Source of the DNA: Candidatus Omnitrophota bacterium
Lineage (GTDB): Bacteria; Omnitrophota; Gorgyraeia; Aquiviventales; Aquiviventaceae
Assembly: GCA_016190215.1 (NCBI GenBank)
Contig: JACPRA010000027.1
Span: 6,659 to 70,658 of the forward strand
Direction: 5' to 3'
Length of the DNA stretch: 64,000 bases
This document shows positions 1,946 to 58,435 of this stretch, in pieces (position 1 is the stretch's first letter; each line of letters begins with the position of its first letter). The notes beneath the pieces are model-generated. The model was not told the origin of the DNA and did not search any database. It saw only the letters and a list, made by a program, of their open reading frames with translations. Made by a program: the position numbers and the translations under genes.

Positions 1946-4234
1946 GTGAACCGGCGGCGTCCGCTTATTATTCTCGCGCTCAGCGCAGGGGTGTGGGTCT
2001 ACGCGAGCAGCCTGCGCGCGTGGTCTGAGCCCCTCCACTTGCTTCGCCAGTCCTCCGAGCCCGAAGAGCTCCAGCTCTTGCGCGGCAGTCAGAACGACAA
2101 CGAGCCCTCGTCCTCCACAGCGTCTTCCCAATCCCAATCGCTTGACTCGATTACCAATCAAGTGATCGCCGAGAAAGCGGCGCAGCGCGCGCAGGATCGG
2201 ACCCAGCGCCAGCGCGCGCAGATGCGCGAGGCAGCGACGCGCATCGCGGTGCAAGTGGCCCAGGAAAAAGCGCGCCAGTTGGAACTCGCAGCGCGCGAAG
2301 CGCAGCGCCAATTGGCGCTGGCCCGGGAGCGCCAGCTCAAGTTCCTCTACAGCCAAGCGTTGTCGCTCTACCGCCGGGGCGCCTACCAGGACGCCATCGA
2401 ACAGCTCCAGCAGATGGCGTTGCTGGATCCCGCCCATCCACTCGTCAAGGCCGCCCAGCACCTGATGACGCAAGCGGAGGCCAAGCGGCTGGAGCAGCGC
2501 GGCCGCGCCCATGCGGCCCTGCCGCCCCAGCGCAAGGCCGCGCCGGCGGTGTCCGATCTGGAGCGGCTGCTGACCGAGAAGCGCATCGAGCAGGATACGT
2601 TGATGAAATACGCCAAGACCGCGATGAAAGAGCAGCGCCACGACATGGCGATGGAGCTGGCCTATCGGGTGCTCCATGGCGACCCGGAAAACCGGGCGGC
2701 GCAGCAGCTCGTGCATGAGGCCCAGCTGGCCAAGCTGAAAGATGACGACCAGACGCTGAAGCGGTCCGTAGAGCTGGATGAGGCCGAAATGATGAACGAC
2801 GTGTTGGAGCGGGAGCTGTTGACGCCGCCGGCCGCCTCGCCGCGCGGCATCGTGCCGGCCGCGCACGTCACCAGCGCGGCGGCGGAGCTCTCCGGACGGT
2901 TCACGCAGCCGATCAGCTGCGAGTTCCAGGACGTGCCGCTGGGCGACGTGCTCGATTTTCTGGGCGATGCCGCCAACGTCAGTCTCATCCCCTCGCCCCG
3001 GCTGGATTTGAAGGGCACGTTGGTGTCGCTCAAGGCCGACCGGCTGCCGTTTGAGCTGGCTTTGAAGTATCTCGCCAAGAGCGAAGGGCTGGCGTACCGC
3101 CAGGAAGACAGCGTCATCCTGATCTCCACGGAGGAAGAGCTGGCCAACGAGCCGCTGGAGACGCGCGTCTTTTTCCTGCGGGCCGGCCTCGGCCCGTTTG
3201 CGCTGGAGACCGCGGCCGTGGACTCCTCCGCTCCGCTGAAAATGGAATCCATCAAGGGCTTGATTGAGCAGACCATCACGCAGCCCTCCGGCGGCAAGCT
3301 GGTGATTGACGAGCGCAGCGGGTCGGTCATTATCACCAATACGGCGGAAAACCTGCGCAAAGTGGAGCGGCTGCTCAGCCGCATTGACACCACGCCGATC
3401 CAGGTGCTGATCGAATCCCGGTTCATCGAGCTGACCCTGACGGATTTGCAGCAGATGGGATTTGAATCCGTTCTGACCGGCGACTATCCCCTCAGCAAAG
3501 CCAAGACGAACACCCAAGGGGTGGAGGGTTTGGCAAACGAGCAGATCATCGGCAAGGGCGGCGGGTTTAAGTTTCCCGCGCTGGCTCGCGAGAGTGAAAG
3601 CCTGAACATCACCTTGCAGGGCGTGCTCACCGGCTTTCAGTTCGAATCGGTGCTGCACCTGCTGGAGGAAAACCAGAAGAGCAAGACCCTCTCCGCGCCC
3701 CGCGTGACGACGCTCAATCACCAGCCGGCCTCCATTAAAGTGGTGGATGAGTTCCGCTATCCGACGCGGTATGAGCTCTCCCTCGTGCAGTTCGACGCCA
3801 ACGGCGACGGCGATTTCGACGATGCGGGCGAGGCGGAGTTCGTCAACGTGCCCCAGGACTTTCAAAAGCGCGACGTCGGCATCCTGCTGAACGTCACACC
3901 CAGCGTCGGGGACGATTTGAAGACCGTGACCTTGGTGCTGGCCCCGGAGGTCAGCTCCTTCAGCCAGTTCCGCGATTTGGGCGGGGGTGTCACCGTGCCG
4001 GAGTTCACCTCCAGCCAATTGACCACCAGCGTCGTGATCCAGGACGGCGAAACCGTCGTGCTCGGCGGCTTGATCAAAGACAGCCGTTCCGAGCAGCTCA
4101 CCAAGGTGCCGCTGCTGGGCGATCTGCCCCTCGTCGGCGGCCTCTTCCGCCAGACGGAAGAATCCCAAACCCGCAAGAACCTCCTCATTTTTGTGACGGC
4201 GCGGATCCTGGCTCCGCGCGGCCCCACGATTTAG
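1946..4234 (+). CDS. Secretin (GspD/PilQ family) with long N-terminal coiled-coil/TPR-like extension
   Basis: C-terminal secretin domain motifs (TLSAPRVTTLNHQPASIKVV, ILLNVTPSVG, VVLGGLIKD, VPLLGDLPLVGGLFR, NLLIFVTARIL). The N-terminal ~280 aa is Q/R/A-rich helical with TPR-like segments (YRRGAYQDAIEQLQQMALLDP). Confidence 0.85.
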   Translation: MNRRRPLIILALSAGVWVYASSLRAWSEPLHLLRQSSEPEELQLLRGSQNDNEPSSSTASSQSQSLDSITNQVIAEKAAQRAQDRTQRQRAQMREAATRIAVQVAQEKARQLELAAREAQRQLALARERQLKFLYSQALSLYRRGAYQDAIEQLQQMALLDPAHPLVKAAQHLMTQAEAKRLEQRGRAHAALPPQRKAAPAVSDLERLLTEKRIEQDTLMKYAKTAMKEQRHDMAMELAYRVLHGDPENRAAQQLVHEAQLAKLKDDDQTLKRSVELDEAEMMNDVLERELLTPPAASPRGIVPAAHVTSAAAELSGRFTQPISCEFQDVPLGDVLDFLGDAANVSLIPSPRLDLKGTLVSLKADRLPFELALKYLAKSEGLAYRQEDSVILISTEEELANEPLETRVFFLRAGLGPFALETAAVDSSAPLKMESIKGLIEQTITQPSGGKLVIDERSGSVIITNTAENLRKVERLLSRIDTTPIQVLIESRFIELTLTDLQQMGFESVLTGDYPLSKAKTNTQGVEGLANEQIIGKGGGFKFPALARESESLNITLQGVLTGFQFESVLHLLEENQKSKTLSAPRVTTLNHQPASIKVVDEFRYPTRYELSLVQFDANGDGDFDDAGEAEFVNVPQDFQKRDVGILLNVTPSVGDDLKTVTLVLAPEVSSFSQFRDLGGGVTVPEFTSSQLTTSVVIQDGETVVLGGLIKDSRSEQLTKVPLLGDLPLVGGLFRQTEESQTRKNLLIFVTARILAPRGPTI

Positions 4235-8967: not shown

Positions 8968-9837
<870 letters not shown>

Positions 9838-9869
9838 CGCATCAATTTTCCGCCGCTCTCCCCCCATTA

Positions 9870-9951
9870 CAACCATTCAACGGGTGACGCGAAGTGGGGG
9901 CCCCCGCCGTCCCGGCGGGGTCACGAAGCGGCAGGACCCGTTGAATGGTTG
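9870..9951. repeat. GC-rich palindromic element, copy A (conserved core, private arms)
   Basis: 16-nt arms CAACCATTCAACGGGT / ACCCGTTGAATGGTTG enclose a core that contains the CCCCGCCG-tcc-CGGCGGGG hairpin. Confidence 0.75.
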
Positions 9952-9970
9952 CTCCCTATCTCCAAATCCA

Positions 9971-10000
9971 TTGACATCAATCGAATAGCTATGGTAGAGT
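9971..10000 (+). promoter_or_regulatory. Sigma70-type promoter (TTGACA-18 nt-TAGAGT) for the coiled-coil gene
   Basis: Read directly from the sequence. It lies 20 nt downstream of palindromic element A. Confidence 0.4.
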
Positions 10001-17500: not shown

Positions 17501-17558
17501 CTGTGACAAGTGACAGGTGACATGTCACATGTAACCTGTAACATGTGACATATGTCAC
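17501..17558. repeat. Tandem heptamer array (NNGTRAC / GTCAC), about 8 units, partly self-complementary
   Basis: CTGTGAC AAGTGAC AGGTGAC ATGTCAC ATGTAAC CTGTAAC ATGTGAC ATATGTCAC. Confidence 0.85.
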
Positions 17559-17619: not shown

Positions 17620-17753
17620 GAGACGATCGACGAACGGGCAAACCTCCGCCACACATCGTGGCGGACCCGCCGAGGGTGTAGGGGCGGGCGCCGCAAGGCA
17701 GGGACGCAAAGCTTCTGACCCCGCGCGCGCGGGGTAGCAGGGCTGCCGAATGG
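17620..17753 (+). promoter_or_regulatory. c-di-GMP-I (GEMM-I) riboswitch aptamer
   Basis: Contains the hallmark segments GGGCAAACC (17636-17644), GGGACGCAAAGC (17701-17712) and GGUAGCAGGGCUGCCGAAUGG (17732-17753). For comparison, V. cholerae Vc2 has GGGCAAACC...GGGACGCAAAGCC...GGUAGCGGGGUUACCGAUGG. The first hairpin carries an enlarged branched insert. Confidence 0.65.
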
Positions 17754-19499: not shown

Positions 19500-20572
19500 G
19501 CGTTTCCGCCCGACCCACCATGGAACACCTGCTGCGGCTGATGGTGGAGCAGGGGGCCACGGATTTGCATCTGACCGCCAATGCCCCGCCGCACCTGCGG
19601 CTGGACGAACAGCTGGTGGCGACGGACCACGGCGTGCTCAAAGGCGAGGACGTGCGCGAGCTGGCGCACAGCTTGTTGTCGCCCGACAAAGCGGAACGGC
19701 TGGAGCGGTGGAAAGAGCTGGATTTCGCGTTTTCCATCGAGGGGCTGGCGCGGTTCCGCGCCAACTATTTCTTCCAGCAGGGCTATATCGGGGTGGCGAT
19801 CCGCATGCTGCCGTTTCGCATCCAAGGCTTCGAGGAGCTGGGCCTGCCTGCCAAGGTCTTGACGGAGTGGTGCAATAAGCCCAAGGGGCTGGTCCTCATC
19901 ACCGGGTCCACCGGCTCGGGTAAAACCACGACCCTCGCGGCCATGGTGGACTACTTGAACAACACCAAGCCCTACCACATCGTCACCATCGAAGACCCGG
20001 TGGAGTATGTGCATACCGGCAAGCGCGCGATCGTGGACCAGCGGGAAGTCGGCGCGGATACGCAGTCCTTCGCGCAGGCCTTGAAGCACTCGCTCCGCCA
20101 GGATCCGGACGTCATCCTGATCGGAGAGATGCGGGACCTGGAAACCATTGAGACGGCGCTCATCATGGCGGAAACCGGCCATCTGGTCTTGGCGACCCTC
20201 CATACGTCCGACGCCGTGCAGACGGTCAACCGGATCGTGGACGTGTTCCCGTCCCATCAGCAAAACCAGGTGCGCAGCCAGCTGTCGCTGGAGCTGTTGG
20301 GCGTGCTCTCCCAACAGTTGATCCCCAAATCCAGCGGCCGGGGGCGCGTGCTGGCCGTGGAAGTGCTGCTGGCCAATCATGCCGTGCGGTCGCTGGTGCG
20401 GGAGCAGAAAGTCCACCAGCTCTATTCCGTGATCCAGACGGCCCAGAAAGACGGCATGAAGACGATGAACCAGTCCTTATATGAGCTGTATCTCAACCGG
20501 GTCATTACGCTGGAGGAGGCGTTGGCGCGGTCCACGGACCCCGACGACCTCTTGCGGCTGACGAAACGCTGA
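19496..20572 (+). CDS. pilT: Type IV pilus retraction ATPase PilT
   Basis: Walker A GSTGSGKTTTLAAM, the AIRNLIRE-like VRSLVREQK, and a PilT-type length of 358 aa with no N-terminal T2SSE_N domain. Confidence 0.9.
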   Translation: MSVSARPTMEHLLRLMVEQGATDLHLTANAPPHLRLDEQLVATDHGVLKGEDVRELAHSLLSPDKAERLERWKELDFAFSIEGLARFRANYFFQQGYIGVAIRMLPFRIQGFEELGLPAKVLTEWCNKPKGLVLITGSTGSGKTTTLAAMVDYLNNTKPYHIVTIEDPVEYVHTGKRAIVDQREVGADTQSFAQALKHSLRQDPDVILIGEMRDLETIETALIMAETGHLVLATLHTSDAVQTVNRIVDVFPSHQQNQVRSQLSLELLGVLSQQLIPKSSGRGRVLAVEVLLANHAVRSLVREQKVHQLYSVIQTAQKDGMKTMNQSLYELYLNRVITLEEALARSTDPDDLLRLTKR

Positions 20573-20600
20573 GCCCGAGCGGATTACAGGACGGAGCGGC

Positions 20601-21095
20601 ATGGCCAAGCGCATCATCACAAAGCGGATCGGCGACATCCTGCTGGAGCGGGGAATCGTCAACCGCCAGGAGCTGGAGCAGGCCTTGGCGCAGCAAAAGG
20701 AGCGCGGGGGCCTGTTGGGCCAAGTGCTGGTGGAGATGGGGGCGGTCACGGAAGAGGAGGTCGCCCTGGCGCTGACGGCCCAGTACGGTTTTCCCTATCT
20801 GCCGCTGGAGAGCTATGAGATTGACGACGCGATTGCCCGCTTGGTGCCGGAACAGGTGGCCCGGCAATACGTGCTGATTCCGATTGATCAGATCGGGAAT
20901 GCCTTGTCCGTGGCCATGGCGGATCCCTCCAACCTCCAGGCCGTGGAAGACATCGAGCTGCTCACCAGCTGTATCGTGCAGACGTTTGTCAGCACGCCCT
21001 CGGACATCCGCAAGGCGATCGGCCGCTGCTATCCCTCCGCGTCCGCCGGTCCCGCGCCGGCGTCCGGGCCCTCACCCAGCGAGCCGCGGCCATGA
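20601..21095 (+). CDS. Stand-alone T2SSE_N/MshEN domain protein (predicted c-di-GMP receptor)
   Basis: Residues 9-61 give two 24-residue MshEN motifs separated by a 5-residue spacer: RIGDILLERGIVNRQELEQALAQQ-KERGG-LLGQVLVEMGAVTEEEVALALTAQ. No ATPase domain; the protein ends in a Pro/Ser-rich tail. Confidence 0.75.
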   Translation: MAKRIITKRIGDILLERGIVNRQELEQALAQQKERGGLLGQVLVEMGAVTEEEVALALTAQYGFPYLPLESYEIDDAIARLVPEQVARQYVLIPIDQIGNALSVAMADPSNLQAVEDIELLTSCIVQTFVSTPSDIRKAIGRCYPSASAGPAPASGPSPSEPRP

Positions 21096-22843
21096 TGAGC
21101 TTCAAGGACCGCATGATGGAGGCCCTCGTGGGGAACCACGTGTTGACGCGCGAGCAGATCGAAGCCGCCCTGAAATTTCAACAGACCAGCGGCGGCAGCC
21201 TGCAGAAGGTGCTGGTCGAGCGCGGGTTCATCACGGAGAGCGCCTTGCTCTCCGCCATCAGCCAGGGGCTGGGCATCCCGCAGATTCGGCTGGCGCGCAT
21301 GAAGATCGACCCGACGCTCAAAACGCTGCTTTCCAGGGAAATCGCCAAGCAGTACCAGCTGATCCCGATCGCCTGCATGGGGCAGACCCTGACGGTGGCG
21401 ATGGCCGATCCGCTGAACATTTTTGCGCTCGATACCTTGACGACCATGACGGGCTTGTCCATCAATCCGCTCCTGGCGACCGCCGGGGACATCCAGGAAG
21501 CCATTGACGTGTACTACGGCACCGGGGTCGAGGAAACATTGCGGCAGATGGTCCGGGAGACGCGGCCCGTCGCGCCGGACCGCGCGCCGGCTCGTCCGCC
21601 CCGCCCGGAGGAGCCGCCGAAGAAATCCGCCCGGCCGGCGGGCTTGACCCAAGAGCCTCCCGTCGTGCGGATGACCGATATGCTGTTGGCGAAGGCGGTG
21701 CAGCTGCGCGCGTCGGATTTATTGATCGAGCCGCTGGAGCATGCCTTCCGCGTGCGCTATCGCGTGGACGGCGTGCTGCAGGAAGGCGAGGCGCCGCCCC
21801 GGCAGTTCCAGCAGGCCGTGGTCTCCCGGATCAAGATCCTGGCGGAATTGAACATTGCCGAGCGCCGCCTGCCGCAGGATGGTCATTTCAACGCGCTCAT
21901 GGACGGCCGCCCGGTGGACTTCCGCGTGTCCGTGCTGCCCGCGACGTTCGGAGAGCGGGTGGTGCTGCGGATTTTGGATAAGCGGCAGGTCAAGCTGGAT
22001 CTGAGGACCCTCGGATTCCACCCGGATGATTTGAGCATGCTGCAGCGTCTGGCTCAGCAGCCGCACGGGTTGGTGCTGTGCACCGGGCCCACCGGCTCGG
22101 GCAAAACCACGACCTTGTATTCCCTGCTGACGACGGTGGATCGCCCCGAGAAAAACCTCGTCACGGTGGAGGACCCCGTCGAATTCCAGTTGGAAGGCGT
22201 CAACCAGGTCACGGCCCGCGCCGACATCGGCTTGACGTTCGCCGCGGCGCTGCGGTCCATCCTCCGCCAGGATCCGGATGTCATCATGGTGGGAGAGATC
22301 CGTGACGCCGAAACCGCGGACATGGCCGTCAAGGCCGCCTTGACCGGGCACTTGGTGCTCAGCACCCTCCACACGAACAGCGCCGCCGGCACCGTCGTGC
22401 GGCTGGTCAATATGGGCGTGGAGCCCTTCCTGCTGAACTCGTCGCTCCTGGCGGTTATTGGGCAGCGGCTTGTCCGGCGCATCTGCTCTTCGTGCCAGAA
22501 GGCCTATCGTCCGCCGGAGGCCCTTGCCAAAAAATTCGGCCTGGTGGATGCCCGCGGGCGCGTCGTGGAGCTGGTCAAGGGGGAAGGCTGCGGGGCGTGC
22601 TTTCAATCCGGCTACCGGGGGCGGGAGGTGATCGCGGAGGTGCTGACGATCGTGCCCCCGATGCGCGAGCTGATCCTGCACCGTCCCCAGGAGCGCGAGC
22701 TGGAAGAGAGCGCCCGCCAGTCCGGCATGCGGACCTTGCGCGAGCACGGCCTGCAGAAAGCGATCGCGCACCTGACGTCGTTGGATGAGGTCATCCGCAC
22801 CACGGTCGGCGAATCGGTGGAGCTGGGGAGTGCCGCGCCATGA
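21092..22843 (+). CDS. pilB: Type IV pilus/T2SS assembly ATPase (PilB/GspE family), copy 1
   Basis: T2SSE_N domain, Walker A CTGPTGSGKTTTLYS, Asp/His boxes, and a tetracysteine motif (CSSC...CGAC). Confidence 0.9.
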   Translation: MMSFKDRMMEALVGNHVLTREQIEAALKFQQTSGGSLQKVLVERGFITESALLSAISQGLGIPQIRLARMKIDPTLKTLLSREIAKQYQLIPIACMGQTLTVAMADPLNIFALDTLTTMTGLSINPLLATAGDIQEAIDVYYGTGVEETLRQMVRETRPVAPDRAPARPPRPEEPPKKSARPAGLTQEPPVVRMTDMLLAKAVQLRASDLLIEPLEHAFRVRYRVDGVLQEGEAPPRQFQQAVVSRIKILAELNIAERRLPQDGHFNALMDGRPVDFRVSVLPATFGERVVLRILDKRQVKLDLRTLGFHPDDLSMLQRLAQQPHGLVLCTGPTGSGKTTTLYSLLTTVDRPEKNLVTVEDPVEFQLEGVNQVTARADIGLTFAAALRSILRQDPDVIMVGEIRDAETADMAVKAALTGHLVLSTLHTNSAAGTVVRLVNMGVEPFLLNSSLLAVIGQRLVRRICSSCQKAYRPPEALAKKFGLVDARGRVVELVKGEGCGACFQSGYRGREVIAEVLTIVPPMRELILHRPQERELEESARQSGMRTLREHGLQKAIAHLTSLDEVIRTTVGESVELGSAAP

Positions 22844-24558
22844 GCAGCATGCAAACCCGTCTCGTTGACGTCTTGATTGCCAAGGGATTGGCCAGCCGGG
22901 AACAGCTGGTTGCGCTCCAAACCGAGGCGCGCAGCGGCAAGCGGTTCGGACAGCTGCTGATTCAGCAGGGCATCCTGACCGCGGAGACGCTCGTCGGGCT
23001 GCTCTCGCAGGAGCTGGGGGTGCCCAGCTTATCGCTGTCCAAATATCGGTTGGATCCGAAAGTGGCGGGGTTGATTCCGGAGCGGGTGGCCCGCCAATAC
23101 ACGATGATCCCGATTTCCCAGTTCGGCCAGCGGCTCGTGGTGGCCATGGCCGACCCGGTGGACTTGTTCGCCCTGGAAGACGTGAAAGCCCTCACGCACT
23201 ATGCGGTGGATCCCGTGCTGGCCAAGGCCTCGGAAATCGAGCAGGCCATCGAGCAGAGCTATGGCGGCATGCGGGCCAGTTTTCCATCAACGCCTCCGGC
23301 GGCGGACGCCGGCGGGGGCGAGGACAAGGACGGCGGCGCCCTCCAGAGCGGGGAATTGGAGAGCGCGGTCCAGCTCCTCCTGGCCGAGGATGCCAGCGAC
23401 GCCCCGGCCGTCAAGGTGATCAACCTGATGCTGCTCGAGGCCCTGCGCCAGCGGGCCTCCGACATCCACCTCGAGCCGGCGTCCGACGCCGTGCGCGTGC
23501 GCTACCGGGTTGATGGGCGCCTGGCGGAAGCCCACCGGTTGCCGAAGCGGGCGCAAAGCACGGTGCTCACCCGCCTAAAAATCATGGCGGGGCTGGACAT
23601 TACCGAATCGCGCTTGCCGCAGGATGGGCGGTTTAAAGTCCGGCTGGATGTGCGGGAGGTGGATTTCCGCGTCTCGGTGCTGCCGGTGGTGCACGGCAAC
23701 AAAATCGTCTTGCGCGCGCTGGATAAGAGCAGCCTCGCCGCGGGGTTGGAGCAATTAGGGTTTTCCCCGCGATCGGTCGCCCCCCTCAAAGACGCCGTGG
23801 CGCGGCCCCACGGCATGATCTTGGTGACCGGACCCACCGGCTCCGGCAAATCCACGACGCTGTATTCCATGCTGCAGCAGCTCAACCTGCCCACGCGCAA
23901 CATCATCACCATCGAGGACCCGGTGGAGTATCAGCTCAACGGCGCCACCCAGGTCCAGGACAACCCGGAGATCGGGCTGACCTTCGCGTCCGGGTTGCGG
24001 TCCATCCTGCGGCAGAATCCCGACATCGTGATGATCGGGGAAATCCGCGACTTTGAAACCGCCGACATCGCCATGAAGGCCAGCCTGACCGGCCACCTGG
24101 TGTTGTCCACCCTGCATACCAACGACGCGCCCTCGTCCGTGACCCGGTTGGTGGACATGGGGGTGGAGCCCTTCCTCATCGCCTCCAGCCTCACCGTGAT
24201 CGAGGCGCAGCGGCTGGTGCGCAAGCTCTGCGCGAAGTGCCGGCAGCCCATCGAGCCGCCCCGGGCGCTCCTGGAACAGTTGGCGTTCAGCCCGCCGCCG
24301 GGGAGCGCGTTCTACCGCGCCGTCGGCTGCCCCAGCTGCAACGGGATGGGCTACCGCGGGCGGATGGGGCTGATCGAGGTCTGCCCGGTGGATGAAGGGT
24401 TGCGCGAGCGGATCGTCTCCCAGGCCCACGCCGGGGAGTTGAAAGCGTATGCGCGCGCCCACCTGGGCATGGTGACGTTGCAGGAGGATGGGATCGCCAA
24501 AGCCGCCGCCGGCTTGACGACGCTGGAAGAAATCCTGCAGGCGACGTCGGAGCTGTGA
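22840..24558 (+). CDS. pilB: Type IV pilus/T2SS assembly ATPase (PilB/GspE family), copy 2
   Basis: T2SSE_N domain with a good second MshEN-like half (RFGQLLIQQGILTAETLVGLLSQ), Walker A VTGPTGSGKSTTLYS, and tetracysteine (CAKC...CPSC). Confidence 0.9.
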   Translation: MSSMQTRLVDVLIAKGLASREQLVALQTEARSGKRFGQLLIQQGILTAETLVGLLSQELGVPSLSLSKYRLDPKVAGLIPERVARQYTMIPISQFGQRLVVAMADPVDLFALEDVKALTHYAVDPVLAKASEIEQAIEQSYGGMRASFPSTPPAADAGGGEDKDGGALQSGELESAVQLLLAEDASDAPAVKVINLMLLEALRQRASDIHLEPASDAVRVRYRVDGRLAEAHRLPKRAQSTVLTRLKIMAGLDITESRLPQDGRFKVRLDVREVDFRVSVLPVVHGNKIVLRALDKSSLAAGLEQLGFSPRSVAPLKDAVARPHGMILVTGPTGSGKSTTLYSMLQQLNLPTRNIITIEDPVEYQLNGATQVQDNPEIGLTFASGLRSILRQNPDIVMIGEIRDFETADIAMKASLTGHLVLSTLHTNDAPSSVTRLVDMGVEPFLIASSLTVIEAQRLVRKLCAKCRQPIEPPRALLEQLAFSPPPGSAFYRAVGCPSCNGMGYRGRMGLIEVCPVDEGLRERIVSQAHAGELKAYARAHLGMVTLQEDGIAKAAAGLTTLEEILQATSEL

Positions 24559-32171: not shown

Positions 32172-32196
32172 CACGCCTCCCTGAAGACATCAGCTC

Positions 32197-32233
32197 GCCG
32201 TTCGTGAAGCGTCTCTCGCGCTTCACGAACGGC
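32197..32233 (+). terminator. Perfect 15-bp stem-loop closing the pilus operon (no U-tract)
   Basis: GCCGTTCGTGAAGCG-tctctcg-CGCTTCACGAACGGC. A second small palindrome, GGTAGCG...CGCTACC, follows. Confidence 0.5.
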
Positions 32234-32275
32234 GCTTCACCAACCCTCTTGGTAGCGATTTCCGGTACCGCTACC

Positions 32276-36446: not shown

Positions 36447-36518
36447 GGGCCGGTAGCTCAGTGGTAGAGCAGGAGACTCATAATCTCTTGGTCGGACGTT
36501 CGATCCGTCCCCGGCCCA
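36447..36518 (+). tRNA. tRNA with CAT anticodon (elongator type; resembles tRNA-Ile2/lysidine class more than initiator)
   Basis: Hand-folded cloverleaf. Acceptor GGGCCGG/CCGGCCC, anticodon loop CTCATAA, T-loop TTCGATC. G1-C72 pairing and no GGG/CCC anticodon stem argue against an initiator. No encoded CCA. Confidence 0.85.
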
Positions 36519-36552
36519 TGTTGTTTCGAGGCAAGGGACGGACGGTAAGCTT

Positions 36553-36626
36553 GGGCGATTAGCTCAGTCGGTTAGAGCGCATGCCTCACATGCATGAGGT
36601 CAGAGGTTCGAGTCCTCTATCGCCCA
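36553..36626 (+). tRNA. tRNA-Val (CAC)
   Basis: Hand-folded cloverleaf. Acceptor GGGCGAT/ATCGCCC, anticodon loop CTCACAT, T-loop TTCGAGT. No encoded CCA. Confidence 0.9.
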
Positions 36627-37975: not shown

Positions 37976-38363
37976 GAGCCGTCACGCGGGACGCTGGATG
38001 GTCGCTCTCCGCCGCCGTGCGTGGCGGAGGGAGGAAAGTCCGAGCTCCGCAGGGCAGCGTACCCCGATAACCTCGGGGCCTCTCCCGCCACAGTTCGTTG
38101 GCGGGGGGGCGGATAAGAGCCACAGAGACGAGTCCTTCGGCAAGGTGATGCCTTGCTGAGGGGGTGAAACGCGGCAATCTCTACGCGGAGCAAGGCCAAA
38201 TGACCTGACGGTTGTCCGCCCAGCGTGGTGGATAACCAGCGGTAGCCCGCCGCCGGTCAGGAAGGTCGGCCGCACGAGCCCGGTCGCAAGGCCGGGCCCA
38301 GATGGATGACCATCGTCCGCCACAGTACGTTGGCGGAAACAAAACTCGGCTTACATGCGGCTC
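37976..38363 (+). ncRNA. rnpB: RNase P RNA, bacterial type A
   Basis: Conserved GAGGGAGGAAAGTCCGAGCTCC, AGCAAGGCCAAAT, AGATGGATGACCATCGTCC and ACAAAACTCGGCTTA segments. P1 pairs GAGCCG (37976) with CGGCTC (38358). Confidence 0.9.
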
Positions 38364-38386
38364 GCGCGGCGGCTCTCATTCTTTCA

Positions 38387-46953: not shown

Positions 46954-48193
46954 GCGCGTTCGCCGCGAGCCGCAGGCCGTTCAGCGCGAGTTGCGCTGCC
47001 TGCCGTCGAATCCCCGCTCGATCTCCGTAAAAAAACTTTCGCGCCACCTGCGTGCCCTGCGGTCCGGCCCACGCCAGATAGACCAGCCCCACCGGTTTGT
47101 CCGCGGTGCCGCCGCCGGGGCCGGCGATGCCGGTGACGCTCACGCCGAACGTGCTGCCGCTCAATCGGCGCGCCCCCTCGGCCATGGCCCGTGCGACCGG
47201 CGCGCTGACCGCGCCATGGCGCGCCAGGAGTGCCGGCGCTACGCCCAGTACGTGTATTTTTGCCTGGTTGTGATAGGCGACGACGGAGAGCGTGACATAC
47301 CGAGAGCTGCCGGGCACCTCTGTCAGCACGGTGGATACCAAGCCCCCGGTGCACGACTCCGCGATCGCGACCGTCGCGCGATGCCGCACCAAGCTCTCTC
47401 CCGCAACGGCCTCAAGCGATGGTTCGCCGACGGCATAGATGGCGCGTCCCAGCGCGCGATGGAGCCGGCGCTCGATGCCGTCGAGGAGCATCGCTGCGCG
47501 CCGCGCCGAGGTGCTGGTGGCGGTGAGTTGGACATCCACCATCAGCAGGTTCGGATAGAATCCCACCGAGACGCCGGGCGGAAGATGGAACCGGCGCAGC
47601 AGCCGCTGTAATTGGAGCTCCAGCACGCCGATCGTCCGGATGGTCCGGGTGGCGAGCGCACCGGCTGGGCGCAGGCGTCGCAGCCTCGGCAGCACCGACG
47701 CCTGCAGGATCGCCCGCATTTCCTGGGGCACGCCGGGCAGAGCAATCAGCCGGGTCGCACCCCGCTCCCACCACACGCCAGGCGCGGTGCCCAGGGGATT
47801 CGGCAGCGGGCGCGCCCCGCGAGGCACGAAAGCCTGGCGCGCGGCCAGGCGGCTGAGGTGGGCGCCATGCCGGCGATAGAGCCGCTGCACGTGCCGGGCG
47901 GCTTGGGAGGAGCGCACGAGCGGTTGTCCTAACGCGCGCGCCAGGGCCTGAACGGTGATGTCATCGTCGGTGGGCCCGAGGCCGCCGGTGATGAGGATGA
48001 GATCGCTGCGGTGCAGGGCCGCGGTGATGGCCTCGACGATGGCCGCCGGCTCGTCCGGCACGGCAAGATGGCGCCGGGCGGCGATGCCCAGCGCCTGCAG
48101 TTGGCGCGAGAGGTAGGCGGCGTTGGTATTGATGACGCGCCCGCTGAGCAGCTCCGATCCGATGGCAATGATTTCCGCCTGCATGACCGCCAT
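46931..48193 (-). CDS. cinA: CinA-family protein (competence/damage-inducible; NMN amidohydrolase PncC domain)
   Basis: N-terminal MoCF-binding domain (AEIIAIGSELLSGRVINTNAAYL...ITGGLGPTDDDIT) plus a C-terminal PncC domain. The start is the ATG at 48193 or 48184; the track GTG at 48280 lies in a repeat element. Confidence 0.85.
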   Translation of the reverse strand: MAVMQAEIIAIGSELLSGRVINTNAAYLSRQLQALGIAARRHLAVPDEPAAIVEAITAALHRSDLILITGGLGPTDDDITVQALARALGQPLVRSSQAARHVQRLYRRHGAHLSRLAARQAFVPRGARPLPNPLGTAPGVWWERGATRLIALPGVPQEMRAILQASVLPRLRRLRPAGALATRTIRTIGVLELQLQRLLRRFHLPPGVSVGFYPNLLMVDVQLTATSTSARRAAMLLDGIERRLHRALGRAIYAVGEPSLEAVAGESLVRHRATVAIAESCTGGLVSTVLTEVPGSSRYVTLSVVAYHNQAKIHVLGVAPALLARHGAVSAPVARAMAEGARRLSGSTFGVSVTGIAGPGGGTADKPVGLVYLAWAGPQGTQVARKFFYGDRAGIRRQAAQLALNGLRLAANALTPSSRR

Positions 48194-48208
48194 TATAGCA
48201 TTTGGGTC

Positions 48209-48297
48209 GTGATTTCGGTTGGCGGGTCCTGCCGCTGCGCGACCCCGCCGGGGGCGGCGGGGGCCCCCGCTCCGCGTCACCCGCCAACCGAAGTCAC
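48209..48297. repeat. GC-rich palindromic element, copy B (inverted relative to copy A)
   Basis: 19-nt arms GTGATTTCGGTTGGCGGGT / ACCCGCCAACCGAAGTCAC with one mismatch. The core matches the reverse complement of copy A at 53 of 59 hand-aligned positions. Confidence 0.75.
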
Positions 48298-48332
48298 TTG
48301 GTTGGGAGGGGGAGAGAGGAAGAGCAGGCGCT

Positions 48333-48362
48333 TTGACAGGGACGGCGGGCTTCTCGTATAAT
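48333..48362 (+). promoter_or_regulatory. Sigma70-type promoter (TTGACA-18 nt-TATAAT) for recA
   Basis: Read directly from the sequence. It lies about 95 nt upstream of the recA ATG. Confidence 0.5.
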
Positions 48363-56127: not shown

Positions 56128-56155
56128 AAGGGCAGGGGGCACGCCAAATAGTGGG

Positions 56156-56229
56156 CAGACAGCACCTAGCACACAGCACACAGAGCGATCCTTTTTATCT
56201 GTTTGCTGTGTGCTGTGTGCTGTGTGCTG
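56156..56229. repeat. Inverted heptamer arrays (CACACAG)n / (CTGTGTG)n between hisB and hisH
   Basis: Left arm CAGACAG CACCTAG CACACAG CACACAG, loop AGCGATCCTTTTTAT, right arm CTGTTTG CTGTGTG CTGTGTG CTGTGTG. Confidence 0.85.
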
Positions 56230-56845: not shown

Positions 56846-57595
56846 ATGGTGATCCTTCCCGCAATTGATCTCTTGGATGGCAAGGTCGTGCGCCTGGTGC
56901 AGGGCAAGCGCGACCAGGTGACCGTCTATTCCGACGACCCGGTGGCCGTCGCGCAGCGCTGGAAGGCGCAGGGCGCGGAGTGGCTGCACGTCGTGGATTT
57001 AAACGGCGCCTTTGAGGGCACCTACACCAACCTGGCCTGGGCCAAGCGCATCATGGAGTCCTCCGGGCTGAACATTGAGTTGAGCGGGGGCATTCGCAGC
57101 CGGGAGACGCTGGCCGAGTGCATCGGCCTCGGGGCCAAGCGCGTGGTGCTGGGCACCAAGGCGTGCGAGGACCCGCAGTTCGTCCAGGAAGCGGCGGACC
57201 GCTACGGCCATAAAATCGCGGTGGCCATTGACGCCAAGGCGGGGCAGGTGGTCGCGCGCGGCTGGACCGCGCCCACCGCGCTGTCGGCGGAGCAGCTGGC
57301 GCGCAGCATGGCCTATTTAGGGGTCGAGTGCCTCATTTGCACCGACGTTTCGCGCGACGGCATGCTGCAAGGCCCCAACACCGACTTGCTGCGCAAGGTG
57401 CTGGGCATCGGGTCCGTGAAGGTCGTCGCCTCCGGCGGAGTCGCCACGCTTGAGGATGTGCTGCGTCTGGCGGAGCTGGCCCCCCAGGGATTGACCGGCG
57501 TTATCATCGGCAAAGCCTTGTACGAAGGGGCCATTGATTTAAAGGAAGCTCTTCGCGTCGTCAGCAGACAGCACACAGCAGACAGCGAACAGTAA
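56846..57595 (+). CDS. hisA: ProFAR isomerase
   Basis: Contains ILPAIDLLDGKVVRLVQG and VASGGVATLEDV. The C-terminal residues SRQHTADSEQ are encoded by a heptamer repeat array. Confidence 0.9.
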   Translation: MVILPAIDLLDGKVVRLVQGKRDQVTVYSDDPVAVAQRWKAQGAEWLHVVDLNGAFEGTYTNLAWAKRIMESSGLNIELSGGIRSRETLAECIGLGAKRVVLGTKACEDPQFVQEAADRYGHKIAVAIDAKAGQVVARGWTAPTALSAEQLARSMAYLGVECLICTDVSRDGMLQGPNTDLLRKVLGIGSVKVVASGGVATLEDVLRLAELAPQGLTGVIIGKALYEGAIDLKEALRVVSRQHTADSEQ

Positions 57596-57637
57596 CCCCG
57601 TGCGCAATTCTGTGTGCCGTATGCTGTGTGCTGCAGA
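57562..57637. repeat. Inverted heptamer arrays (CAGCASA)n / (CTGTGTG)n spanning hisA 3' end and the hisA-hisF spacer
   Basis: Left arm CAGCAGA CAGCACA CAGCAGA CAGCGAA CAGTAAC. Right arm CTGTGTG CCGTATG CTGTGTG CTGCAGA. Confidence 0.8.
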
Positions 57638-57640
57638 GAC

Positions 57641-58435
57641 ATGTTAACCAAACGCATCATTCCGTGCTTGGACGTGGACGCCGGCCGCGTCGTCAAAGGC
57701 GTGCGGTTCGTCAACCTGCGCGATGCCGGCGATCCGGTGGCGACGGCGCGCGCATATGACGCCACTGGCGCGGATGAACTGGTCTTCCTCGACATCACCG
57801 CCAGCGCGCAGCAGCGCAATATCATGCTGGACGTCGTGGCCCGGACCGCTGCGGTGGTCTTCATGCCGCTGACCGTCGGCGGCGGCATCCGCGGCGTGGA
57901 CGATATCCGCGCCTTGCTGAACGCCGGCGCGGATAAAGCCTCCTTGAACACCGCTGCGGTGCAGCGTCCGGAATTGATCCGCGAATCAGCCGCGCGCTTC
58001 GGCAACCAGTGCATCGTCGTGGCGATTGACGCCAAGCAAGTTCCAGCACACAGCACACAGCACACAGCACACGAGGGCATGCGGTGGGAAGTGTATACCC
58101 ACGGTGGCCGCACCGCCACCGGCCAGGATGCCGTCGCGTGGGCGCGCGAGGCGGAGCGGCTCGGCGCGGGCGAGATTCTGTTGACCAGCATGGACCGCGA
58201 CGGCACGAAACAGGGCTACGACGTGGAGCTCACCCGGGCCGTGGCCCAGGCGGTGACGATCCCGGTGATCGCCTCCGGCGGGGCGGGGACACCCGCGCAC
58301 TTTGTCGAGGTGCTCACCACCGGCGGCGCGGATGCGGCGCTGGCAGCCTCGCTGTTCCACTTCGGCGAGCTGTCCATCGCGCAGGTGAAATCGGCGCTGG
58401 CGCACGCCGGTGTCGCCGTTCGGACTTCAACGTAG
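57641..58435 (+). CDS. hisF: Imidazole glycerol phosphate synthase, cyclase subunit
   Basis: Contains [40 protein letters not shown] and VIASGGAG. Confidence 0.93.
58044..58071 (+). repeat. (CAGCACA)x4 perfect tandem heptamer inside the hisF coding sequence
   Basis: 28 nt, read in frame as [10 protein letters not shown], within a variable loop of HisF after VVAIDAK. Confidence 0.9.

Follow-up and report, generated by a model that had tools for sequence, protein, structure and literature searches.

What kind of element places the same hairpin core at two distant sites of one genome, each time between arms of its own? This question is raised by a stretch of 64,000 nucleotides from a Candidatus Omnitrophota bacterium (contig JACPRA010000027.1, assembly GCA_016190215.1), which we call the window. 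One hairpin, copy A, lies behind a bioF-bioD gene pair, and the other, copy B, between cinA and recA. We lean towards the view that both sites are copies of a non-autonomous, hairpin-shaped mobile element, in the style of repetitive extragenic palindromes (REP), miniature inverted-repeat transposable elements (MITE) or Rickettsia palindromic elements (RPE), whose arms were made locally. It is apparently an undescribed small mobile DNA hairpin of many bacterial phyla.

The core of copy A occupies 9882–9939 on the minus strand (58 nt) and that of copy B 48224–48282 on the plus strand (59 nt), so that the two copies stand 38 kb apart in opposite orientation. We call orientation 1 the strand that reads GGGTCCTGCCGC...GCGTCACCC, and orientation 2 its complement, GGGTGACGC...GCGGCAGGACCC; copy B is in orientation 1 on the plus strand, and copy A reads GGGTCCTGCCGCT...GCGTCACCC (orientation 1) on the minus strand and GGGTGACGCG...GCGGCAGGACCC on the plus strand, which is the sense strand of bioD and of the gene that follows. 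Alignment of the reverse complement of copy A (9850–9970) with copy B (48190–48315) by MAFFT gave an uninterrupted block from CGGGTCCTGCCGCT to CGCGTCACCCG, in which 54 of 60 columns are identical, with five substitutions and one indel. The hand count of the preliminary description (53 of 59 positions and one indel) is thus reproduced almost exactly. All of these differences fall in loops or in one compensatory pair, which is GUG/CAC in copy A and GCG/CGC in copy B.

The arms, by the same alignment, have no similarity to each other. In copy A, the bioD-side arm caaccattcaac (9870–9881) is complementary at 12 of 12 positions to the promoter-side arm gttgaatggttg (9940–9951), and is specific to this locus. 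In copy B, the cinA-side arm gtgatttcggttggc (48209–48223) forms 14 Watson-Crick pairs and one T.G pair with its complement, the recA-side arm gccaaccgaagtcac (48283–48297). The arms are therefore 12 bp long in copy A and 15 bp in copy B, and their description as unrelated between copies yet self-complementary within each copy holds. A covariance model of the core, built from 41 sequences, matches copy A at 9876–9945 (−) with 73.2 bits and an E-value of 3e-13, and copy B at 48218–48288 (+) with 62.9 bits and an E-value of 4e-11. No third copy was found when the 64 kb were scanned with the filters off, nothing else exceeding 11.5 bits. Both copies fold far more stably than shuffled sequences (z from −4.1 to −6.1), the core of copy A reaching −53.4 kcal/mol with z −6.1.

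The presence of only two copies in a 64-kb window could be read as a segmental duplication within the genome, or as a chance likeness of two GC-rich hairpins. We find this hardly credible. According to 100 shuffles, the number of matches to the central 28-mer pattern that chance would give in the window is 0.00, and the similarity between the copies stops exactly at the base of the first helix of the core, the flanks being unrelated. Moreover, the same core is present in about 35 other genomes from many phyla, with arms that are not conserved, which refutes the simple duplication that the preliminary description had named as the outcome that would overturn its proposal.

The distribution of the family was established, as had been proposed there, by searching beyond the window. 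One genome per bacterial species was scanned with the pattern GGGTCCTGCCGCT-N30-50-GCGTCACCC, which gave at least 80 loci; six high-GC matches among them are probably due to chance. The remaining loci come, among the matches listed, from about 35 genomes of at least eight phyla. They include Omnitrophota, Patescibacteria (Gottesmanbacteria and Saccharibacteria), Planctomycetota, Rokubacteria, Spirochaetota, Chitinivibrionia, Solirubrobacterales and Gammaproteobacteria (Coxiella, Coxiellaceae, Rickettsiella, Aquirickettsiella and several metagenome-assembled genomes, MAGs), besides a "Deltaproteobacteria" MAG and a Lachnospiraceae MAG. Many of the carrier genomes have a GC content of 35–45%. 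The number of copies can be considerable, with at least 17 in the neighbourhoods from a Coxiella MAG and at least 10 in one Gottesmanbacteria MAG. The covariance model detects 95 sites in the fetched loci, 12 of them outside the exact pattern, and about 35 genomes have model matches of 41 bits or more. A scan of 2.9 million viral contigs with the exact pattern gave 0 loci, and blastn against plasmids returned only chance GC-rich matches. A full-text literature search with conserved 11–12-mers of both strands retrieved unrelated primers only, although a description that does not print the sequence could escape it, and keyword searches led to papers on REP, MITE and RPE, with none on this element. 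Searching proteins with the peptide encoded by the Gottesmanbacteria copies gave one weak match only.

What these sites share is above all a structure. Single-sequence folds and the model alignment agree on a rod-like hairpin of 55–72 nt, GGGT...ACCC. Its first helix, P1, consists of GGGU/ACCC and a fifth, closing pair, which is C-G in 58 sequences and G-C in 18. After P1 there is a 3-nt bulge, CCU, followed by a G-C pair and a C.U mismatch that is a fixed pyrimidine-pyrimidine opposition (purine-purine on the other strand). Then come the helix P2, CGC/GCG, and a 3x3 internal loop (U.. / ..C), beyond which lie P3, of 3–4 bp, an asymmetric loop and P4, a variable hairpin. P1, the bulge and P2 are fixed, and P3 and P4 covary freely. 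A distal P4 module, CGUGCUC-N-GCGCGCG, is common to many members from five phyla, and the window copies, in which GGA or GGGG closes the hairpin, are minimal forms. The bulge on the 3' side of P4 is a copy of the nucleotide before P4 plus the first 3–4 nt of P4, so that the P4 foot and the bulge make a small palindrome of variable sequence: GGGGGCCCCC, GGGATCCC, AGATCT, AGCGCT or AGGCCT. The first of these is found in both window copies, at 9896–9905 and 48259–48268. An exact 4-mer match between P4 foot and bulge occurs in 23 of 73 sequences, compared with 11.5 in shuffles (maximum 20 in 2000).

Covariance supports the inner helices. Paired cells amount to 82.6%, against 65.3% in shuffles and 39–48% when the partners are slid, and double-sided changes to 393 cells against 150 in shuffles; the signal is strong in P3, P4 and the closing pair of P1. 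Compensatory covariation of a selected stem, the first suggestion of the preliminary description, thus holds across the family for these parts of the core. It does not extend to the outer arms, which are replaced wholesale between copies and can be up to 30–80 nt long, and point-mutation covariation does not produce such a pattern.

A conserved and covarying core is also what would be expected of a functional structured RNA. According to this alternative, the core would work in cis within operon transcripts, as a module for processing, stability or protein binding, or might even be a small ribozyme. The GGGUGACGCG...AGCGGCAGGACCC strand would be the active one, and the outer stem would be needed only as a helix of free sequence. 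Besides the covariation, the conserved bulge and internal-loop nucleotides speak for it. Two loop positions never vary one without the other (C/T in 71 sequences, T/C in 6 and A/C in 1); their joint change is, on the opposite strand, the one that would be active, one from A.G to G.A or G.U, and G.A juxtapositions flank P2 on that strand. On the other hand, there is no excess of G.U on either strand: G.U-type pairs are equally frequent on the two strands (69 and 57), and a strand call from G.U against A.C was discarded as uninformative. Terminal loops are not conserved. At Rfam 15 gathering thresholds no family was found at either window site or in 12 other loci. E-value scans with a short-form and a long-form copy gave at best Plastid-psbJ-4 with 28 bits (cut-off 55.2) and poplar-1 with 16 bits (cut-off 110.5), the latter having a similar P1/2x5 loop/P2 layout. 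None of the self-cleaving Rfam classes (hammerhead, twister, twister-sister, pistol, hatchet, hairpin and HDV) rose above noise. All in all, we consider the functional RNA unlikely, also in view of the behaviour of the core in genomes.

The copies are neighbours of ordinary housekeeping genes and occupy all four gene configurations. About a quarter of them lie inside open reading frames (ORFs), in both orientations, the insert being essentially the bare core. In six housekeeping proteins, a domain of Pfam or NCBIfam either extends across an in-frame insert of 26–32 residues or is interrupted by it: a CopA-type P-type ATPase (locus L010), a carbamoyltransferase (L003), a polyprenyl synthetase (L020), topoisomerase I (L023), an FtsJ/TlyA methyltransferase (L011) and a PurQ-type amidotransferase, GATase_5 (L046). 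Further in-frame cases, outside or between matched domains, are TsaD/TsaB-like, TRAM-domain methyltransferase and O-antigen-ligase-like proteins. An rRNA intervening sequence was rejected as the identity of the ORF-internal copies because there is no rRNA at those loci. In the Gottesmanbacteria locus L071, three consecutive paralogous pilin genes carry the element in frame in each N-terminal leader, all in the same orientation. Tandem heptamers precede each of these pilin genes, (AATTTTC)n at 1975–2010, (AAAATGC/AAAATTC)n at 3055–3095 and (AAAACTC)n at 4180–4215, and are reminiscent of heptamer arrays in the window that are described below.

In some genomes the core stands within a larger repeat. 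In the Coxiella MAG (MGOZ) it is centred in a repeat of about 165 nt with terminal inverted repeats, flanked by direct target duplications of 7–10 bp; direct repeats with at least six matches are found at 9 of 14 copies, compared with 1.3 when partners are shuffled. A truncated copy stands beside a full one in the same MAG (L041, about 1960–2030), and comprises the right arm and the first nine core nucleotides (GGGTGACGC) before unrelated sequence begins. Arm families of their own are present in Coxiella MGOZ, Gammaproteobacteria CAVQQD, Coxiellaceae CAMTUH and Gottesmanbacteria JACPZE, and Planctomycetia CAYODQ has near-identical cores between unrelated flanks, with identity running from GGGT to ACCC. 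Most copies, both window copies included, are single. Convergent pairs 10–110 nt apart occur in Omnitrophica and Chitinivibrionia loci, four of which, 10–30 nt apart, were delimited with the covariance model (L040 1425–1620, L055 1898–2083, L076 5434–5611 and L063 6678–6870). One partner of such pairs is often a variant, CCTGTC...GCCACCC, and the layout resembles REPIN doublets.

Mobile DNA is characterised by features such as these: insertion in frame into unrelated housekeeping genes, MITE forms that have target duplications, and bursts of near-identical copies. They weigh against a functional RNA together with the occupation of all gene configurations and of coding sequences in both orientations. 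They also bear out one half of the second explanation given in the preliminary description, a small mobile palindrome: multi-copy genomes, one core between different flanks, in-frame gene insertions and the target duplications of one MITE form all speak for mobility. The other half, insertion into the loops of pre-existing hairpins, is not supported where the history of the arms can be examined.

In most copies only 1–6 flanking bases are complementary, often 3–6 bp; the flanking pair is C...G in 57 of 78 copies and G...C in 17. Some copies have long arms that are unique to their locus. At L059, two copies 310 nt apart have their own inverted repeats of 64 nt and 38 nt, 97% complementary, and neither pair of arms recurs in the 83 loci fetched, among them seven 8-kb loci of that genome. 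At L045, a tRNA-Val gene that the contig end cuts off provides the left flank with its 3' part (Rfam tRNA, 40.9 bits), and the right arm contains, at 194–214, the exact reverse complement of the tRNA 3' end at 35–55 (21 nt), in mirror position about the core. No original hairpin can have had half a tRNA as one of its sides, and the L045 arm must therefore be a later inverted copy of the native flank. The long arms of both loci suggest secondary inverted duplications of one flank, produced, as we infer, by fold-back copying.

These observations bear on a further alternative, namely that a mobile core enters the loops or centres of existing hairpins, such as terminators, operators or palindromic repeats, so that the arms would be old local sequence. 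The short complementary flanks could fit small palindromic targets, and the core does occupy the exact middle of palindromic repeats that are unrelated to each other and each specific to a genome. The window even contains what looks like an empty hairpin of a size similar to the arms, a perfect 16-bp stem with a 7-nt loop at 32196–32234 (CGCCGTTCGTGAAGCG...CGCTTCACGAACGGCG), with neither core nor T tract. Nevertheless, palindromes of 64 nt (97%) or 56 nt are implausible in spacers before any insertion, and the arm that holds an inverted tRNA gene fragment is no half of an original hairpin. In the window itself, the AT content of the A and B arms is higher than in the stems of terminators and there is no T tract, and no terminator is expected at copy B, between divergent promoters. 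We regard this origin of the arms as quite improbable, although it is conceivable for the two window copies themselves.

We therefore return to a mobile core with locally made arms, for which the following scheme can be proposed. The conserved core GGGT...ACCC would be the transposed unit; the arms would lie outside this unit and would for this reason vary from copy to copy. The geometry of the core would be a signal in cis, and an enzyme encoded elsewhere and acting in trans would recognise it on single-stranded nucleic acid in the folded state. Outside some 25 fixed nucleotides it is structure rather than sequence that is conserved, which suggests that a folded strand is recognised, by analogy with REP and their RAYT enzymes, IS200/IS605 ends and attC sites. 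Once inserted, the stable hairpin would most likely provoke fold-back DNA synthesis, an intramolecular template switch that would copy one flank, inverted, to the other side, so that the palindrome would grow with local sequence. In some genomes the core with longer arms might then have become a conventional MITE, spreading with direct target duplications.

A more radical variant is that the core is a horizontally travelling "palindrome seed", which moves by itself and turns its neighbours into inverted repeats by repeated fold-back copying. It would rely for its movement on a widespread single-strand-specific enzyme or on an intrinsic activity of the nucleic acid, and beside the end of an insertion sequence it could give rise to a new two-ended MITE. 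This would explain why the same core is at the exact centre of unrelated MITE families across phyla. We hold this variant to be doubtful, and prefer the non-autonomous element with a separate enzyme.

Several points weigh against that preference, some of them by favouring a functional RNA. No transposase or other trans-acting gene could be identified in the 8-kb neighbourhoods of 80 loci, and all-against-all clustering of the ORFs in these neighbourhoods, which belong to 41 genomes, revealed no recurrent gene family beside the copies. The same tdk-tmk spacer is occupied in three Saccharibacteria, with the element sense to the genes. P3, P4 and the arms differ among these orthologous copies and the conserved nucleotides are the same, which looks like purifying selection for a host function. 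Between co-directional genes, orientation 2 is the sense strand in 23 cases and the antisense strand in 11, and copies are often 20–130 nt upstream of highly expressed genes (atpD, eno, sucC, rplK, rpsB and pilins). The conserved loops are purine-rich on one strand, with G.A juxtapositions as in structured RNAs. At L045 there is a second, asymmetric inverted fragment of the tRNA end at 376–399. This fragment, 180 nt beyond the arm, is 92% identical to tRNA-Val 30–53 and has no tRNA attached, and it may be an old attachment-site remnant. In addition, 22 end positions were fixed by the search pattern, so that their invariance is partly given by construction and only the 12 model-only matches inform on variation there. 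All sequences come from MAGs, in which palindromes can be artefacts of assembly or amplification. Finally, no empty site corresponding to the window copies was found; L081, described below, is the only relative, and its spacer is too diverged to align.

How do the two window copies fit in their surroundings? The ORF at 9034–9837 matches the AAA_26 domain of dethiobiotin-synthase type and follows a BioF-like aminotransferase, and copy A starts 33 nt past the stop of this bioF-bioD pair. A promoter-like sequence, TTGACA-18-TAGAGT, begins at 9971, 19 nt past the arm. Copy A had been placed just after bioD and about 20 nt before a −35 box, and this position is correct. The strand with GGGUGACGC is sense here, within the 3' region of bioD, as a functional RNA would have it, and no T tract follows the element. 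The gene downstream encodes a coiled-coil membrane protein; it is no biotin gene, and a BirA operator at the copy A arms was rejected on this ground.

Copy B sits between the divergent promoters of cinA and recA. The former gene is on the minus strand, with an ATG at 48184 or 48193 and a TATAAT that overlaps the start; the recA promoter, at 48333–48362, agrees with the consensus at 12 of 12 positions and lies 35 nt beyond the arm. Copy B is thus upstream of both −10 elements and outside both predicted transcripts, which speaks against a functional RNA. Likeness to direct repeats is weak at the window copies, as in TTGGGT/TTGGTT at B. The CinA of the window is 100% identical to an NCBI protein from a Candidatus Omnitrophica MAG, and an exact look-up of RecA gave no record. 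In the relative L081 (GCA_023247215.1), whose CinA is 73% identical, the core is absent and both promoters are kept. The cinA-recA spacer there has 83 nt, compared with 130 nt in the window, and is unrelated and unstructured. A string similar to the cinA-side arm, cttcgttggcgg, occurs at the equivalent place, and this faint likeness is the only hint on the origin of the arms that the window copies give: the cinA-side arm is possibly native flank. Weak arm-like strings on either side of an unrelated 28-nt middle in L081 could equally be claimed for a pre-existing hairpin, but the segment folds no better than shuffles (z +0.75). A scan of metagenomes for closer relatives with a recA-promoter pattern returned one unrelated locus. 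A LexA box at the copy B arms was also considered and rejected, as L081 has no such palindrome. An independent assembly of the same organism (L082, Logan contig SRR12113431_169298) breaks off, at its cinA-upstream end (L082 position 1, read on the minus strand), inside the copy B core just after GACCCCGCCGGG, which suggests that such hairpins fragment short-read assemblies.

In our opinion, copies A and B are probably near-neutral passengers. For the window the consequences are modest, as two passengers have settled in the 3' spacer of bioD and in the cinA-recA control region. If the element is indeed undescribed, its wider meaning would be larger. A selfish hairpin would be common to Omnitrophota, Patescibacteria, Coxiellaceae, Planctomycetota and others, mostly uncultured and often host-dependent lineages. 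The phenomenon of protein-coding palindromes, so far held to be a peculiarity of Rickettsia, would reach many phyla. There would be a concrete system for studying palindrome growth in bacterial genomes and the possible birth of MITE, and annotators would gain a marker for spurious ORF extensions, split domains and contig breaks.

Other features of the window deserve a brief record. Inverted arrays of GCACACA/GCAGACA heptamers form imperfect palindromes of 24–30 nt in three nearby spacers (56155–56229, 57564–57633 and 58028–58074). Heptamers GTGACAN/GTCACNT make a palindrome at 17502–17551, with a related array at 1335–1364; the former is just upstream of a c-di-GMP-I riboswitch (17627–17750, Rfam 42.9 bits). 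Three paralogous genes for PilB/PilT-type ATPases stand in a row at 19878–24101, as direct repeats with 67–82% identity. Rfam also locates an RNase P RNA at 37986–38369 and two tRNAs at 36447–36626.

Among known systems, RPE, REP/REPIN and MITE come closest. Ogata et al. reportedly described the RPE in 2000 and 2002 as palindromic elements of 100–150 bp confined to Rickettsia. They have no transposase of their own and are found in spacers as well as in frame in housekeeping protein genes, to which they add a short peptide. The present element likewise consists of small non-coding palindromes that are scattered in spacers and inserted in frame inside protein genes. It differs in its core of 55–72 nt, in its presence in at least eight phyla, in its conserved bulge and mismatch architecture and in its variable arms. 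An NCBIfam scan of the encoded 31-residue peptide found no family that would relate it to RPE by sequence.

The RPE are mentioned in PMC3733652, where a REP is described as a short hairpin of 20–40 nt with an unpaired GTAG or CGTC tag at one end. The ends of the present core, GGGTCCTGCCGC and GCGTCACCC, are paired in P1 and P2 and have no GTAG, and CGTC occurs in the core only inside P2 and a loop. A trans-acting enzyme present in single copy (RAYT, of the Y1 HUH type) is believed to recognise REP and REPIN in the form of folded single-stranded DNA. These elements are often arranged as inverted doublets, and are species- or genus-specific and essentially extragenic. Both kinds of element are multi-copy imperfect hairpins defined by structure and a few fixed nucleotides, and some convergent pairs occur here, most copies being single. 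Compared with REP, the present core is of greater length, is untagged, is spread over many phyla and inserts into genes, and no RAYT or IS200/IS605-type gene was seen in the 8-kb neighbourhoods from the 41 genomes. Bacterial MITE, such as Correia/NEMIS, ERIC and Coxiella QMITE1/2 (PMC5896051, PMC10969869), are approached by the form of about 165 nt in the Coxiella MAG, with its terminal inverted repeats and target duplications. In MITE the ends are conserved and the centre is free; in the present element it is the centre that is kept from phylum to phylum, with ends specific to a genome or locus; terminal repeats are shared by copies within some other genomes, but not by the window copies.

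The comparison with attC sites is instructive in the same sense. The latter are imperfect hairpins of 57–141 nt that are read by structure, through bulged bases and an unpaired spacer, and they have conserved R boxes on the outside and a variable centre. The imperfect hairpin with little sequence conservation elsewhere is a common trait, and the arms of copy A even fit RYYYAAC/GTTRRRY (ATTCAAC/GTTGAAT). Identity with attC was rejected since copy B (GGTTGGC/GCCAACC) and most members depart from the R-box consensus and the conserved part is the centre. No intI or other integrase gene recurs in the 80 neighbourhoods, nor do cassette arrays, and the same-orientation copies of L071 precede pilin genes and are read in frame with them, unlike attC arrays. 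IS200/IS605 elements and PATE have two different subterminal hairpins, with tnpA or tnpB in autonomous copies; here each element has one hairpin, and none of the 80 neighbourhoods has an ORF associated with it. For the arms, the nearest parallel is fold-back palindrome formation and template-switch mutagenesis at quasipalindromes, reportedly studied by Ripley in 1982, by the Lovett laboratory and in Tetrahymena and yeast. In this process a hairpin in nascent DNA primes synthesis on itself, and an inverted repeat is perfected or extended with adjacent sequence. It is known as a mutational process at arbitrary inverted repeats; that one family of mobile elements should show it regularly has, to our knowledge, not been reported. 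By analogy, it is the process that we think may have given the present core its locally made arms.

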